Assembly: GCA_951406725.2 (NCBI GenBank)
Contig: OX597816.1
Span: 85,064,001 to 85,128,000, forward strand
Source of the DNA: Octopus vulgaris
Taxonomy: Eukaryota
Direction of reading: 5' to 3'
Length of the DNA stretch: 64,000 nt
The position numbers were made by a program, and so were the translations under genes. Below the pieces are notes generated by a model. The model did no database searches. It was not told the origin of the DNA and worked only from the letters and a program-made list of their open reading frames with translations. Below are positions 2,738 through 61,494 of this stretch, piece by piece. Each line of letters opens with the position of its first letter. The stretch's first letter is position 1.

Positions 2738-3040
2738 TACACATATATGCGTGTATATATATATATAATATATATATATAATATATATATATATAAAACT
2801 TATATCTATAGAGAGGGAGAAAGACAGAGACAAAGAGAGAGAGAGAGCATAAAAGATGGCATTAAATCTGTACTCCTTTATTACACATGTAATCCCTGAT
2901 AATCTCTCATTGCAGTAATTATATGAAAAAGAAAAAAAAAACAGAAGCATCCTGTATTACACAACTTGCAGAAATAAAATTACGTTACTAAGCTGACCCG
3001 AATTAAAGAAAAACCAAAAGAAAGAGAAATGTGAATATGT

Positions 3041-3191
3041 AGGCAGAGGTGTGGTACGATGTTTGCTTACCATCCAAATGGTTCCGTGTTCATTCCCAGT
3101 GATTGACACATTGGACATGGGCCTACATCTAAAGACTCAGGCCAAACAAAGCCTTGTGAGTGTATTGGTAGGCAGAAACAGAAAGGAGCTC
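3041..3191 (+). mobile_element. tRNA-derived SINE family A, 5' half (degraded)
   Basis: Aligns by eye to the 5' half of the copies at 5231-5638 and 53271-53664 (GGTTCCGTGTTCATTCCCA...AAAGCCTTGTGAGTG...GAAACAGAAAG). Confidence 0.7.
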
Positions 3192-3241
3192 ATCATAAAT
3201 ATGTATATTTATATGTATATGCATATGTATATGTATTTGTG

Positions 3242-3350
<109 letters not shown>

Positions 3351-3372
3351 GCACACACACATATATATGTAT

Positions 3373-3429
<57 letters not shown>

Positions 3430-3626
3430 GTGAGAATTTACAAAAAGAAAGATAAAACAAACGACGAAAAGGTGTGCGTAAACAACAAGCAGCTGTATTA
3501 GTTTAACGCTCGGGAACTGAGAAAGTGTTTTAGATTTCGAGCCTAAATTCTTCGACAGAAAGGAACAAGGAAATAAACACAGAGAGAAAACAGAAAAAGG
3601 TTTAGTGGCTAGCGATAAATCATGGC

Positions 3627-3695
<69 letters not shown>

Positions 3696-3872
3696 GTATA
3701 ATAAGATGTTAAATAATTATTAATTTTAAAATCAACAATTATTTCCGGGTAGATTTCGGTATGGAAATATAACCATTATCGATAGGAACTTTTAAAAAAA
3801 GTTATATATATATATATATATACATGTAGGAATATATATGTACTTATATACATATACATATATATATAAGTA

Positions 3873-3911
<39 letters not shown>

Positions 3912-3912
<1 letters not shown>

Positions 3913-3965
3913 TTGAAAAAAATCAAAGTAGAAAATGCTAAAATAATTTTATAAAAACATTTCAG
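3912..3965 (-). mobile_element. ~55-nt retroelement-like tail fused to the U6 3' end (copy 1)
   Basis: Minus strand reads CTGAAATGTTTTTATAAAATTATTTTAGCATTTTCTACTTTGATTTTTTTCAAT; near-identical to 4135-4190 (+) and 13185-13236 (-). Confidence 0.85.
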
Positions 3966-4072
3966 AAAAATATGGAACGCTTCATGAGTTTGCGTGTCAT
4001 CCTTGCGCAGGGGCCATTCTAATCTTCTCTGTATCGTTCTAATTTTAGTAAATGTACTGCCGAAGCAAGTTC
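3966..4072 (-). pseudogene. U6: Full-length U6 snRNA retropseudogene (107 nt)
   Basis: Reverse complement reads GAACTTGCTTCGGCAGTACATTTACTAAAATTAGAACGATACAGAGAAGATTAGAATGGCCCCTGCGCAAGGATGACACGCAAACTCATGAAGCGTTCCATATTTTT. The ACAGAGA box is intact, the AGC triad is changed to AGA, there are several other substitutions, and no upstream promoter (upstream DNA is another U6 fragment). Confidence 0.93.
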
Positions 4073-4091
4073 CAATTTTAGATATGTACTG
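4071..4091 (-). pseudogene. U6: Short U6 fragment (about nt 14-35)
   Basis: Reverse complement CAGTACATATCTAAAATTGGA matches U6 CAGTACATATACTAAAATTGGA with one base missing. Confidence 0.75.
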
Positions 4092-4134
4092 GCGCAAGGA
4101 TGACACGCAAATTCGTGAAGCGTTCCATATTTTT
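4092..4134 (+). pseudogene. U6: U6 snRNA 3' fragment (about nt 65-107)
   Basis: GCGCAAGGATGACACGCAAATTCGTGAAGCGTTCCATATTTTT matches the conserved metazoan U6 3' end. Confidence 0.93.
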
Positions 4135-4190
4135 CTGAAATATTTTTTCATAAAAATATTTTAGTATTTTCTACCTTGACTTTTTTCCAT
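4135..4190 (+). mobile_element. Same ~55-nt tail fused to the U6 3' end (copy 2)
   Basis: CTGAAATATTTTTTCATAAAAATATTTTAGTATTTTCTACCTTGACTTTTTTCCAT, followed by a short (AT)n. Confidence 0.85.
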
Positions 4191-4226
4191 ATATATCAAA
4201 TCGTGTCTTCCTTTTCAACCTTCAAC

Positions 4227-4290
<64 letters not shown>

Positions 4291-4404
4291 TTTTAAAAGT
4301 CTTTGCAAAAATTACTTGATATAACTTTACAAACTATAGAAAGGTCCTTTTAGAAGATCTTTTTATAAAAAAAAAGTTCTAAATTCTTTATAATAACTAC
4401 ACTA

Positions 4405-4523
4405 ACCGATAGATTAAGTACAAGGCTTCAAAATAAATGTCCTAGGGTGTATTTCTTCGACTAAACCCTTTAAGATGGTGCCCCGTAGTCAAATGATTGA
4501 TGCAAGTAGAAGATAAAAGATAA
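4405..4523 (+). mobile_element. SINE family A, 3' half
   Basis: ACCGATAGATTAAGTAC...TTCGACTAAA...GTCAAATGATTGA...AGATAAAAGATAA matches the 3' end of 53271-53664. Confidence 0.7.
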
Positions 4524-5230
4524 CAGATGTATATATAAAGTATGAATTAAGCCTATGTTTGTATGGCATTAAATCTATTATAACGCATCCATCAAAAAAT
4601 TGCACACAGTCATGGCAGCGCCTCAGGATTATACAATGTTTATTATTTCAACATCATGTGCGTAAATATAAAGATTATGGGACCGGTTAATTTCCTTCTA
4701 CATAAAAGTGGCCATTAGCAAAACAGTATTCCTCAAGATTCAATCCAATAACAGTCAACGTTTGTCCTTAGGATTTATTGATTTATATGCCAAAGCATTA
4801 ATATTCTGGCAATTGACGATATATATCTGGAAAAGGAACATCTGTTGTTATTCGTAGAATTCTCAGAATAAATGTATGCTTTGTTAGCTGCATTAAGTCA
4901 CAATAAAACTCTGGATGACGTGTGATATAGGCTTTTCCAACATCGAACCTTTGCTAGTGCATAACTGCCCAGCAAACAAATACTATAATGATTGTCTCCT
5001 GAACGTTGTGAATTTTGGTTAATTTTCAGGAAAACAATGAAAATCGAAACCCCCTTAAATCATCCTTTTCTCAAAAAATTGTACATTAATGATTTTCATG
5101 TAGTTAGGTTGAGCGAAACCATTATATTTTTATTTTCGCTGCAAGGGCTGATTGTGAATTCATCTGTGTATTTTCTTTCCATGAAACTAGACATCGTTTT
5201 AACTTGAGCAAGGTTATCTTCAGCAAGGTT

Positions 5231-5638
5231 ACTCTTTTACTCTTATACTTGTTTCAGTCATTTGACTGCGGCCATGCTGGAGCACCGCCTTTAGTCGAGC
5301 AAATAGACCCCGGGACTTATTCTTTGTAAGCCCAGTACTTATTGTATCGGTCTCTTTTGCCGAACCGTTAAGTGACGGGGACGTAAACACACCAGCATCG
5401 GTTGTCAAGCAATGCTAGGGGGACAAACACCGACAAACACACACACACATAAATATATATATATATACATATATACGACAGGCTTCTTTCAGTTTCCGTC
5501 TACCAAATCCACTCACAAGGCATTGGTCAGCCCGGGGCTATAGCAGAAGACACTTGCCCAAAGTGCCACGCAGTGGGACTGAACCCGGAACCATGTGGTT
5601 GGTTAGCAAGCTACTTACCACACAGCCACTCCTGCGCC
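5231..5638 (-). mobile_element. Full-length tRNA-derived SINE family A
   Basis: Minus-strand head GGCGCAGGAGTGGCTGTGTGGTAAG (A box) and GGTTCAGTCCC (B box), an internal (TA)/(TG) tract and a repeat tail (AAGAGTAAAAGAGT). Homologous to 53271-53664. Confidence 0.9.
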
Positions 5639-13140: not shown

Positions 13141-13184
13141 CACACACACACACACACACTCACACATATATATGTATATGCATA

Positions 13185-13366
13185 GAAAAAAGTCAAGATA
13201 GAAAATGCTAAAATAATTTTATTAAAAACATTTCAGTGCCGTTTTCAGTCATTGAGACTGTTAGTATGGAAACCAATTAAATTTTGGAAACATTAAAAGA
13301 AAAGTTTTTTTTAAAGAATATTTGCATAGTGTTCAAATACAAGTGGTATTTTCCTTGTTTCTGCTG
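13185..13366 (-). mobile_element. Short repeat between microsatellite tracts carrying the same tail as the U6 chimeras, without U6 (possible PLE terminal repeat)
   Basis: Minus strand reads ...CAGTCTCAATGACTGAAAACGGCA|CTGAAATGTTTTTAATAAAATTATTTTAGCATTTTCTATCTTGACTTTTTTC. Confidence 0.65.
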
Positions 13367-24029: not shown

Positions 24030-25790
24030 CAAAAGGGTGTAAGTCCTAGACATTGCTTTTCCAGAAAATGAAAAAAAACCTTTGTACAAATTTTATTATC
24101 TTGGTATCTGAAGCAGCTGGAGATACGAATAGTTTGACCAAAAGAACTGGCTATTGCAGGCACAAATAATTATTTTAAAAAACCGCATTTGGCTAAATTT
24201 GGACATACGAGAGTTTAAGGTAATAGCAACGATATACACGATATATATATGCCTACATACATACATACATACATACATTTCGCAAAATTTTCTAAATTCA
24301 CTGGTCAGAAATTGTGTTACATTATCAGATGCAATCAGGTCTGGAATACCAAATCTTGCGATTAATTCGTGCAAAGAATTTATCTCCGTTTCGGAGGTTT
24401 GTCTTTTGTATCTAACAATTTCCGGCCATTTTGTAAAACTGTTAACTACTACTAAATAGTAATAGCTATTTAACAAACCGGCAAAATCGATATGTAGTCT
24501 TGACCATGCATTTTTTACTTCTGGCCAAGACTCCCATTTTTGAGTAGGCAATTTCTCACCCAGAGCACATCCTCTGCAGTCTTTTACTCCATTTTCAACT
24601 CCCTTGTCCATTTTCGGTCAATACACTTAACTGCGCATATGCGGTTTCACCCTTGCAATCCCTGGATGTCCAATATGGAATTCTTTCAACATTCTTTTGT
24701 GTGAAGTCTCAAGTATCACTACCCTTTGGCCATACATCAGTACGCCGTCGCATGTTGAATATATATTCACCTGTTGCTGTTTTTTCTTACCGAACCTATT
24801 TTCATTTTTTTTATCTGTCCACAGAGTCTTTTCTGATGAACCTATCTTTTGACGCGTGTCGCGTTATCGCCTCTAGAATTATTGGTAACTCTCGTACAAT
24901 GGTCCACATTATGTATTTGATTTCCCCTTCTTAGGACTGCTATTACTGTGTTCTCAAATGGTTCGCAATATCTGGGTATTAACCTGGATAGGACGTCAGC
25001 ATCTCCTAGCTTTTTGAAAGAAGGTAAATATTTTATTGCATAATTGTAGTTTACTTGTATAGTGCCCCACTGCTGCAACTTATTTGCTGTGTGTACTGGA
25101 ATACCTATCTTGGATCCATAAATCGTAAGCAACGGGCGATGGTCTGTGTGTTGTCTAAACCGTCTACCATGTATAAACCTTTGGTACATATTTATGCCAA
25201 AGATAATTGAATGCCTCTTTTTCAATTTGGATAGGATATTTTATCCGCTGGCGACAGCGTCCTTGGCTGCCATCTTCACATTTTTGTAGGAGTAAAGCAC
25301 CTACACCGTACTCGAAAACATATGTTGTCAGTATTGTTTCCAAATTTTGATCGAAGATTGTAAGAGACAAGCATGACCTTAACATGATTTTTTAGTTCCT
25401 CAAATGCCTCAAATCATTTGGCATCCTTTTTTAACAGCTCCTTTAGTGGAGCCCTTGTGTTGTGTGTGTTCGGGATATATACTCGATAGTATTTTACCAG
25501 GCCTAAAAGTGCTTGTAAGAATTTGACGTTCATTGGGGGTGATATATTCCGTATTGCTGTCACCATTGACATTTATATCTCTTGATCTAAATATTTGATT
25601 TTTTTCATCACAAACTCACACTTTCCTCCTGTTACGTCTAAACTCGTACGAAGTGTTGCTCCACTGATCACTCTTTATCAAAATATAATCAAGATAAGCC
25701 GTAGCGAAGTTGCAATCATTTAACATTGCGTCCATCACTTGCTGGATTATGGCAGGTACCACTTTTACTCCAAAAGGAAGCTGCTCTGGG
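24030..25790 (-). mobile_element. Decayed Ty3/Gypsy pol (RT-RNaseH-integrase), no LTRs seen
   Basis: LPFGVKVVPAIIQQVMD...AYLDYILI (RT); YGVGALLLQ, QIEKEA and HTDHRPLLTIYG...DADVLSRL (RNase H); WSRLHIDFAG...FGIPDLIASDNVTQF (integrase). The domain order RT-RH-INT is Gypsy-type. Confidence 0.92.
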
Positions 25791-43586: not shown

Positions 43587-43775
43587 GCGCAGAGTTGGCT
43601 GCGTGGTAAGAAGCTTGTTTCCCAACCAAATGGTTGGGTGTTCAATCCCACTGCGTGGCACTTTCATCAAATGTTTACTACTTTCGCCACAGATAGTAGA
43701 ACTATCTGTGGCGATAGTAGTATATCAACTAAAGACCTGTGAGTAGACAGAATCATAAAGAAGCCCGTCGTAAAT
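43587..43775 (+). mobile_element. SINE family A 5' half containing a 22-bp hairpin
   Basis: GGCTGCGTGGTAAGAAGCTTG...GTTCAATCCCACTGCGTGGCAC...AAGAAGCCCGTCG. Confidence 0.75.
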
Positions 43776-44379
43776 ATGCTTGCGCATTTCTTAATATGTT
43801 CACTAAAGAGTATCATTCTGTATTCTGGGAATGCAATCTGTTGGCGATGCAGAGTGAAAAGCAACAGCTACCACAATTTATAATCTTTCCATTCTATCAA
43901 TGTGCTATTGGAACATCAACACATGTTAGATTAAGCAAGGAAACCTTCATTAAAAATATAAGCCAAAACTTAACCATTTCTAAACTTTTTAAATAAGGAA
44001 ACTCACCTCATTGAAAAATAATATAAAGCAAAACCTAACCACTTGTAATATTCCATTCCTTCTAAACTGAATCCTGCTTAATTAGTCATTCTCAACATGT
44101 TTGACTATCTCCATTATACCGGAAAAAATCTCTGATTAGCTTCCCCTGCCTGGAACTCCATATTTCACAACATAGCGAAGACATGTCACGATGTAGATAA
44201 AGAAATTTGAGAAATTTGAAAAGAAAATACGAAGCCGGTTATTTCTCAAAAAACTAAGTTATTATACGCAAAATTTTCTAACATTTTTCTAACATAACGA
44301 CTTAAATATATTCTTTAACCATATAAGACAAGCCTTCTGTAGTTTTTTCACTCTTTTTTGTTTTATGTATACATATATA

Positions 44380-50869: not shown

Positions 50870-51830
50870 AAATTTACCAGTGACACGGATTTTAATATGG
50901 AAATAATCTGATGAAATAATGTCCAATGAAATAAATAAATTAATACAATTCCCGATTGAATGTAGCGAACATTAGCCCATATATTTTAATATCTGACCAA
51001 AAGGATGCCTACAACCTAATAAAGACAAACATAGCATAAATCTACGAACTCAAAAAGAATATGTACGTTTCAGTTTGTACCATTGGAGACATCCACGTCA
51101 GACCTCCTTAATAATCCATTCAATCCGATCAGCACAATTGTATCTGATAAAATATCTGTGCCATGCTATTTGAAGCGCTTAAGAAATCATCCATCGACAT
51201 TAGTTTCCTAGATGCCTTAGTAGGTAATGAAATACAACTAATCGTAAAAAATAAAATACTGATACAGTATTCTCAGTATCGGAAAACATAATTATATGAA
51301 AATTGAATGATTTATCATATATCTGTATTGACATTTCTTAGAATCATGGTCTCTTTGACATTATATTTCAAAACAAAACAACGCCCTAATAGGACAGAGT
51401 AAATCATATTTGCAGACGCATAGCATTATAAAAAACCGAAACATGACCAAAGCAAATAAGATTATTCCGAAAAGCCAAACCAAACACATTGAAAACCATA
51501 GCAGAAAATTTGAACAATCTACGTTTGGTTTATATTTAAATTCCTCAAAACGGTCGGGGATCCTATTTAAAAGCGGTCTAGTCTGTAAAATAAAGAAAAC
51601 GTATATGTGCATCTGGAATCTAATTTATGCAAATACATGCTCAGTAATTTGAAAAAGTCATATTGAGCAAACCGGGATATCATTAAGACAACTCATGGCT
51701 CTACGCAGACTACAAAATTGAACATGATGAGATCTTACCAGTGCATTAATTTGCTGATGGCAGAGCATGGCTGCAAAGTACCAGAAAAGAAACCACATTT
51801 ATGGTGTAATACAGAATACTCTCAACAACT
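50870..51830 (+). mobile_element. Highly decayed Penelope-like element (RT thumb and GIY-YIG remnant)
   Basis: Plus-strand ISFLDALV (~51200-51223) and YIEQTG (~51660-51678, resembling YIGQTG), in the expected order. Confidence 0.5.
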
Positions 51831-53270: not shown

Positions 53271-53664
53271 CGCAGGAGTGGCTGTGTAGAAAGTAGCTTG
53301 CTTACCACCCACATGGTTCCGTGTTCATTCCCACTGCGCGGCACCTTGGGCAAGTGTCTTCTACTATAGCCTCGGGCCGACCAATGCCTTGTGAGTGGAT
53401 TTGGTAGACGGAAACTGAAAGAACACGTCGTATATATGCATATATATGTATGCGTGTGTATATGTTTGTGTTCTGTGTTTGTCTCCGCCCCCCCAACATC
53501 GCTTGACAACCGATGCTGGTGTGTTTACATCCCCGTAACTTAGCAGTTCGGCAAAAGAGACCGATAGAATAAGTACTAGGCTTCCAAACAATAAGTCCTG
53601 GGATCAATTTGCTCGACTAAAGGCGGTGCTGCAGTCAAATGACTGAAGCAAATGAAAGAGTAAA
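53271..53664 (+). mobile_element. Near full-length SINE family A
   Basis: Runs from CGCAGGAGTGGCTGTGT through GTCAAATGACTGAAGCAAATGAAAGAGTAAA; collinear with 5231-5638. Confidence 0.9.
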
Positions 53665-60718: not shown

Positions 60719-61186
60719 CGATGTTGATTATGGTCATGGTGATAACGACACCAACAACAATAGATTTAAAAATCAAAAACAAATTTAACAACAAAAATGA
60801 TAATAGTAATAATATTTTTTAACTTTTATTGCCACCGGGCCCATCTATACATAGGAAGCATGTTACAAAAAGATGTGGCAAAGCACAAATGCAGTTATAT
60901 AGAAGTGAAGTGCGAGACAAGGATATACACACACAAACACCAACACACATATGTATACACACAGGAGATAAACAATTGATTATAAGAAATAGGATACATA
61001 GCAGCCAAACATAGATGGGTGTTTAATAATGGTGTATGAATCTACGTGGTAACATGCGCGGTGCTACTCTATAACATAGTGAACAAATGTCTTCTGCTCA
61101 GGATGAAAAAAACATTATAAGTATCATATACACGAACACACATAAACACCCACACCCACTCACATATGTATGTACAGATATTATTG

Positions 61187-61494
<308 letters not shown>

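Follow-up and report, generated by a model that had tools for sequence, protein, structure and literature searches.

Chimeric retrocopies of U6 or U6atac small nuclear RNA (snRNA) with L1 consist of a full-length or 5′-truncated snRNA that ends in a T-run and continues into the 3′ part of a retroelement, inserted as a single piece; their junctions are scattered and have 4-8 T (PMC6789731, PMC4476161). Penelope-like elements (PLEs) carry type I hammerhead ribozymes in pseudo-long terminal repeats (pseudo-LTRs), which flank a frame for reverse transcriptase (RT) and GIY-YIG. The fold has a short palindromic stem III suited to dimers, occurs in a U3:A8 variant and can have an extra base before stem II (PMC4209133); PMC4209133 and PMC6765202 state that evidence for its cleavage in vivo is lacking. 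Both systems meet in a 64,000-nt stretch of the Octopus vulgaris genome, C3:85064001-85128000 (contig OX597816.1, assembly GCA_951406725.2), referred to here as the window, in which U6 is fused to the 3′ end of a PLE at the bond that the hammerhead of the element is predicted to cut. U6/L1 chimeras and PLE hammerheads are known, and U6 at a hammerhead bond is newly seen; a literature search covering few subscription papers and no supplements found no report of such a fusion.

The octopus chimeras share with the L1 retrocopies the full or 5′-truncated U6, the T-run end, the retroelement 3′ part, the single-piece insertion and the use of U6atac. They differ in their PLE partner, in the one fixed base of the junction at the element's own ribozyme site, in their inverted arms within (TA)n and in that the source of the partner 5′ end is identified. 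The fold, stem III, the U3:A8 variant, the extra base before stem II (in family H of the eight families, A to H, described below) and the repeats around the frame are as in the PLE pseudo-LTRs of PMC4209133; here, unlike there, foreign RNA marks the bond, and the cores with A3:U8 and U13 (family F) or C13 (family D) are not among the variants in the available part of that source. Non-LTR retrozymes (PMC7229834, 10.64898/2026.07.22.740005) are likewise short AT-rich hammerhead repeats related to PLE pseudo-LTRs, with ends that RtcB can ligate in vitro. Unlike retrozymes, the octopus copies are mostly solo or inverted PLE 3′ ends rather than tandem arrays (a single head-to-tail repeat, L021, was seen in family A), and they are joined to host snRNA, not to themselves. 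In snRNA-headed short interspersed elements (SINEs) such as SINEU (PMC4494074), an snRNA head also stands on a retroelement-derived tail; the octopus fusions, in contrast to SINEU, form no amplified family and are rare, mostly independent events.

Junctions and hammerheads in eight families

The 2.8-Gb genome is AT-rich and rich in microsatellites. A U6 search of it gave 672 first-look candidates, of which 45 were listed and 30 examined; U6 ends were also collected by pattern, as the first 100 of 225 with the T count unselected and as all 86 with five T (T5). The tails of families B, D, E, F and G were searched genome-wide, and those of C and H were matched to copies from earlier searches. The searches gave 21 chimeric loci, 20 with U6 and one with U6atac, at which the T5 of the snRNA adjoins hammerhead position 1.1: nine in family A, two in B, one in C, three in D (including the U6atac locus), three in E and one each in F, G and H. 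Twenty of them are clear, and one E locus (U6) is probable only, its first 20 nt being divergent. At every clear locus, one arm or both run from a complete snRNA 3′ end straight into position 1.1, with no base added; a 5′-OH is predicted there. In all seven of the families B-H, the NUH of the U6-free hammerhead ends where U6 ends; the hammerheads of B, D, E, F and G were not known before their tails were searched. The family C chimera at C4:141885469 joins at the bond predicted from a U6-free copy in the window, and U6atac in family D (RF00619, 80.6 bits) is T5-joined at the bond. By a rough hand estimate, random placement over ~150 nt would put 8 of 9 families on the bond with a probability below 1e-15. 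The first-pass annotation, which had proposed from the letters of the window that U6 stands in place of all sequence 5′ of the predicted scissile bond, thus proved right about the fixed junction, and the scatter along the element that would have spoken against it is limited to one off-bond case (L151).

All 13 inverted chimeric loci have U6 on both arms. The T-run has a substitution in one arm each at C3:84712, C1:192047 and C4:141885, the partner arm having T5; one arm at C9:66591 has a 7-nt spacer, again with T5 in its partner, and one arm at C6:121083 is deleted across the junction, the other having T5 with C-to-A at position 1.1. A relative of family F (L264) has T6. The partners of U6 at L129, L133, L136, L152, L040 and L141 have no U6-free copy among the examined loci (only TA follows in L040 and L141), the partner at L137 gave weak, uninformative matches only, and at L132, L135, L155 and L038 U6 is joined to other repeats in which no hammerhead was seen.

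Family A, to which the window locus belongs, was searched with the junction as the query (1800 first-look candidates, 46 matches listed, 30 examined). Its nine chimeric loci include five inverted pairs, and most copies of the family are solo or inverted. Immediately before the tail, U6-free copies have a 3-bp stem I followed by a core that reads UUGAAAA in 9 of the 11 parsed copies; next come stem II with 4 bp, GAAA (10 copies), stem III, which is palindromic, and finally GUA (all 11). This is a complete type I hammerhead (N3-UGAN-N8-A / GAAA / NUH, with the 3:8 pair and stems I and II) with a U3:A8 core, a natural variant known in PLEs among others (PMC3088659), and the cut predicted after GUA coincides with the U6 junction. 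A hammerhead next to the tail had been proposed from the 13.2-kb copy of the window, with the caveat that the CUGANGA half of the core is absent there; the absence is real in that copy, which has a private 9-nt deletion, and does not extend to the family.

The register of the bond is fixed independently in each family by stem I, which has 3 bp in A, 6 in B, 7 in C, 2 in D, 5 in E, 4-6 in F and 4 in both G and H; stem length and sequence vary widely between families. The 3:8 core pair covaries, being C-G in B, U-A in A, C, D, E and G, and A-U in F, while H reads as the C-G type. Stem III is self-complementary in A, C, D, G (CCGG) and B, and in two-copy cofolds it pairs between the strands; these cofolds are fully canonical for B only. 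In C, E, F and H, U at H17 creates a T overlap of 1-3 nt with U6; in A, B, D and G this position is A or C and there is no overlap. The unusual cores are consistent within their families, with C13 and the 2-bp stem I in 25/25 parsed D copies and A3:U8 with U13 in 4/4 F copies, both with U6 at the bond. In a cross-family MAFFT alignment, the variable stems came out of register. Rfam Hammerhead_1 places the bond of family B at the same position, with 22.6 bits (E 0.001) against a cut-off of 34, and no family reaches the gathering score (13.7 against 52 for G). The window contains no hammerhead at the Rfam gathering level, and E-value scans picked up family B and, weakly, an alignment to G, with no other family. 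A relaxed descriptor, which hits shuffled window DNA at 4.8e-5 per nt, lands on the junction in five of the eight families (A, B, D, E, G) and fails C, F and H, single copies being tested in each case.

The window locus and its carrier

The insertion in the window occupies 3914-4226, next to a (TA)n microsatellite at 3876-3908 that forms its left flank and likely target. Arm 1 consists of a tail at 3914-3965 (−), a short form of the 3′ product that the hammerhead of PLE family A is predicted to release, and a full-length U6 retrocopy of paralogue type 1 at 3966-4072 (−), whose T5 end is joined to hammerhead position 1.1; this copy scores 104.3 bits with RF00026, above the gathering score of 44. 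Arm 2 begins with a 5′-truncated U6 at 4092-4134 (+), which comprises the last 43 nt and is identical to the U6 3′ end, and continues into a tail that starts at position 1.1 (4135-4195, +) and a 31-nt terminal extension present in the plus arm only (4196-4226), which resembles the one-sided 30-40 bp PLE ‘tail’. The two U6 copies point away from each other, and the inversion centre between them is an extra U6 5′ fragment of 19 nt (4073-4091, −; about nt 14-33, one base deleted). As first noted, both copies end in exactly five T and run directly into the tail, and mutations are confined to the first of them (6 differences from type-1 U6 in 107 nt, none in the 43-nt piece). An inverted 5′-truncated arm, a one-sided tail of 30-40 bp and a microsatellite target make up a known PLE insertion layout (10.1101/2021.04.23.441226), found at the window locus and many others. 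Since the window has this layout, its two U6 copies are counted as the arms of a single inverted insertion, and not, as first suggested, as two independent fusions; the centre fragment and the one-sided extension agree with this.

The tail also occurs U6-free, as the first-pass annotation had it, near 13.2 kb. A family A copy at 13181-13363 (−) holds ~180 nt of the element 3′ end; its tail (13236 to 13181) aligns with the chimera tails at 85-89%, and the hammerhead remnant at 13237-13264 (−), with its 9-nt deletion in stem I and the core, has its predicted bond at 13237/13236. The U6-free family C copy mentioned above lies at 44209-44345 (+) and has a 7-bp stem I, a U3:A8 core and a predicted bond at 44240/44241. 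The genome-wide search for the junction that had been recommended gave seven occurrences of the 20-nt junction, against none for the reversed control.

The first-pass view that the partner is Penelope-like is borne out: the tail is the 3′ end of a PLE carrying a type I hammerhead. Frames with PLE RT, CxxC and GIY-YIG were seen upstream in three of the eight families, A, D and G, whose hammerheads stand ~0.75-1.1 kb downstream of the frame. In family D the hammerhead comes ~750 nt after a frame whose RT motifs are accompanied by a CxxC linker and GIY-YIG; at locus L245 this frame is split in two, with GIY-YIG at E 2e-6 and a weak RVT_1 at E 0.032. Family A loci L256 and L257 have 50-73% identical frame pieces 0.7-0.8 kb upstream of the bond and L259 has a homologous piece upstream in family G, in both families on the same strand; in family B a frame was found on the opposite strand only. 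At L255 (family D2), same-strand hammerheads at 1347 and 6160 flank a frame at 2922-5267; hammerhead-bearing direct repeats around the frame were not seen for family A. The CxxC linker suggests the Neptune or Nematis clade (10.1101/2021.04.23.441226). A search of solved structures with the PLE protein gave no match.

Family D2 (L216, L218, L221, L255) has ~200 nt more than D, with an internal duplication, at or a few bases from the predicted bond. At L222 (C1:116410992-116411049), two D arms in inverted orientation each start precisely at the bond and are separated by 20 nt of unrelated sequence, and the D tail at L248 (C12:1264826) starts at the bond after non-repeat sequence, being either a plain truncation or joined to a captured RNA fragment. 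Elsewhere in the window, decayed pieces weakly resembling the PLE linker and GIY-YIG (E 6e-5 to 6e-4) lie at 51410-51715 (+) and 43760-43858 (−), and a 173-codon open stretch at 24099-24617 (−) presumably corresponds to a piece of LTR-retrotransposon integrase. Two inverted SINE-like repeats of the window, at 5236-5636 and 53271-53664, match at 85% over 407 nt, and 61152-61341 forms a local palindrome of 190 nt; the repeat search over the window was dominated by microsatellites.

Cleavage, joining and rival accounts

Hammerhead cleavage leaves a 5′-OH on the 3′ product. The human U6 and U6atac RNAs carry a terminal 2′,3′-cyclic phosphate, and RtcB joins cyclic-phosphate U6 to 5′-OH RNA in human cells without RT (PMC6789731); it also ligates hammerhead-cut retrozyme ends in vitro (PMC7229834). 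In the proposed course of events, the hammerhead of the element would likely cut its own RNA in germ-line cells, RtcB of the host would probably seal mature U6 onto the 5′-OH of the 3′ product, and the element enzyme would likely copy the hybrid RNA into a (TA)n repeat. After the tail, the chimeric loci continue into microsatellite or flank and not into element sequence, so the short 3′ product (~55-190 nt) appears to suffice as a template that the PLE machinery recognises and inserts. As for the chimeras themselves, they are most likely by-products that lead no further and probably lack a function, in which U6 won the 5′-OH end in competition with the cognate 5′ product. The base of the junction was very probably set by cleavage in vivo, presumably of a dimer formed through the palindromic stem III; such cleavage accounts for a fixed base under any joining model. 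Joining by RtcB rather than by a template jump is tentatively favoured.

U6 has many other partners in this genome. Most of the 672 first-look U6 candidates and 49 of U6atac are fused to SINE 5′ heads from several families, with linkers that vary and often with T4 followed by C; U6/Alu-type fusions are rare in mammals (PMC4476161). The locus C2:23366676-23366885 (L038) is a head-to-tail U6-U6 dimer followed by a LINE-like tail (LINE, long interspersed element). A tRNA-Lys retrocopy with a U6 piece runs into a second U6 start at L115:1354-1427, and another is joined to a short SINE-like repeat at L187:1008-1080. An abundant hammerhead-like family (L073, L090, L140, L276, L286 and others) has U at core position 6 and a variable position 7, and its sole U6 fusion is off the bond.

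Two readings would do without recurrent fusion at a ribozyme site. That the tail is simply the genomic 3′ flank of U6 genes, or a chance match, is rejected and has a negligible probability: a tandem array of seven type-2 U6 copies at C1:139420000-139429999 (L143), spaced by ~1.1-1.4 kb, has T6-T9 and an unrelated flank, and U6-free tails are spread over many loci and contigs. At C2:92011598 (L033), a TATA-like box stands upstream of what is likely a type-1 U6 gene. The amplification of one or a few founder fusions as a U6-headed SINE, which the first-pass annotation had offered as an option, draws on the derived U6 5′ duplication and deletion of 4073-4091 that recurs at C3:84712483-84712777 with flanks not shared, on the grouping of the C6:109376 and C3:110309 tails (support 98/94), and on a family A tail tree that leaves a single origin possible; with 25 rows, 58 columns and 1 of 22 branches supported, this tree is uninformative on origins. 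The promoter of U6, however, is external, and there are eight different tails, a U6atac head, both U6 paralogue heads even among the nine loci of family A, and mostly different inner junctions of the inversions. Many copies from one chimeric master were not found; the 1-9 loci per family, mostly with distinct junctions, compare with 208-1800 first-look candidates of the parent repeats. SINE amplification could account for at most a few secondary copies, is contradicted as a general account and, as such, was rejected as very improbable.

The remaining alternatives concern how the junction arose. Cleavage in vivo with no ligation, in which PLE RT runs off the ribozyme-made 5′ end, adds 1-2 A and jumps to the oligo-U of U6 or U6atac, the second arm being copied from the first cDNA, is a credible though doubtful account. 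Of the original proposal that self-cleaved PLE RNA was ligated to U6, the PLE hammerhead and the junction at its bond hold, while ligation by RtcB is left as one option, since a jump predicts the same junction. Template switching is the classic U6/L1 model (PMC4476161), and jumps by an R2-type RT, whose added bases are mainly A, use 1-2 nt of complementarity (PMC8857657); a clean T5 junction would result from this route as well. U6-free arms also break somewhat more often near the bond than further upstream (of 110, 9 at 0-3 nt, 9 at 4-10 nt, 8 at 11-25 nt and 13 at 26-45 nt; 6/30 at 0-3 nt in family B), one of the nine near-bond breaks being possibly a spurious motif match and one possibly a U6 remnant. 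Ligation, in turn, occurs without RT for U6 and 5′-OH RNA in human cells, as cited above, and the literature search found no paper on template jumping by PLE RT. In the unselected list, T5 with nothing added closes U6 at all 12 hammerhead junctions (9 loci), against T5 at 18 of 63 SINE-head junctions by hand count (T4 16, T6 23, T7-9 6, with extra bases; Fisher p 5.5e-5 by locus). Among the 100 of 180 non-cognate family D junctions listed, with 16 nt of context, U6 and U6atac are the only recognised RNA heads; the bond showed no recognisable tRNA, 5S or further snRNA. U6 on both arms of inverted loci fits a pre-joined template, and also fold-back copying of the first cDNA. A junction set otherwise, whether by RT pausing where the hammerhead folds, by a protein nuclease or by microhomology in the DNA, is very improbable: the T overlap in C, E, F and H could suggest it, as could the poor in vitro cleavage, the weak monomer fold and the non-canonical D and F cores named below, but A, B, D and G, without overlap, join at the same bond, and the hammerheads differ widely in stem length and sequence. 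Several observations weigh against cleavage and ligation. Rfam matches none of A, C, D, E, F and H, and G only at E 3.3; the family A monomer fold is weak, the conserved A13 is replaced by C in D and by U in F, D has only 2 bp in stem I, and PLE minimal hammerheads cleave poorly in vitro (PMC4209133). At L151 the hammerhead-like core carries U at position 6, and the junction falls ~42 nt downstream of the hammerhead-like end. SINE heads are the partner of 63 of the first 100 U6 ends listed and of 31 of 40 U6atac copies, among which one PLE fusion was counted, and U6-U6 and tRNA-headed fusions are present too; joins of which RtcB should be incapable are thus common in this genome, and a preference for U6 and U6atac does not single out ligation. 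The heterogeneity of the SINE junctions may come partly from variable start sites or a different RT, and the T count was selected for D, G, H and two E loci, which came from the T5-only pattern.

Significance

That a foreign RNA is fixed at the scissile bond in eight families speaks, at the level of the genome, for cutting by PLE hammerheads in vivo, whichever way the ends were joined. With the source of the partner 5′ end identified, U6 and the cut PLE RNA form a natural substrate pair for distinguishing ligation from template switching, and the search from the U6 3′ end to its partner is applicable to any PLE-rich genome as a way to find active, non-canonical self-cleaving RNAs. Chances are about even that U6 and U6atac act as natural ligation tags, with which RtcB would cap ribozyme-cut PLE RNA in the germ line, so that the junctions would map cuts made in vivo to the base. 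Should this be so, U6 junctions would reveal cutting even by cores that do not pass standard searches, such as A3:U8 with U13 in F or C13 beside a stem I of 2 bp in D, and the insertion signal of PLEs would lie in the short piece downstream of the cut. The chimeras would then stand in the octopus genome as a record that, and where, PLE ribozymes cut.
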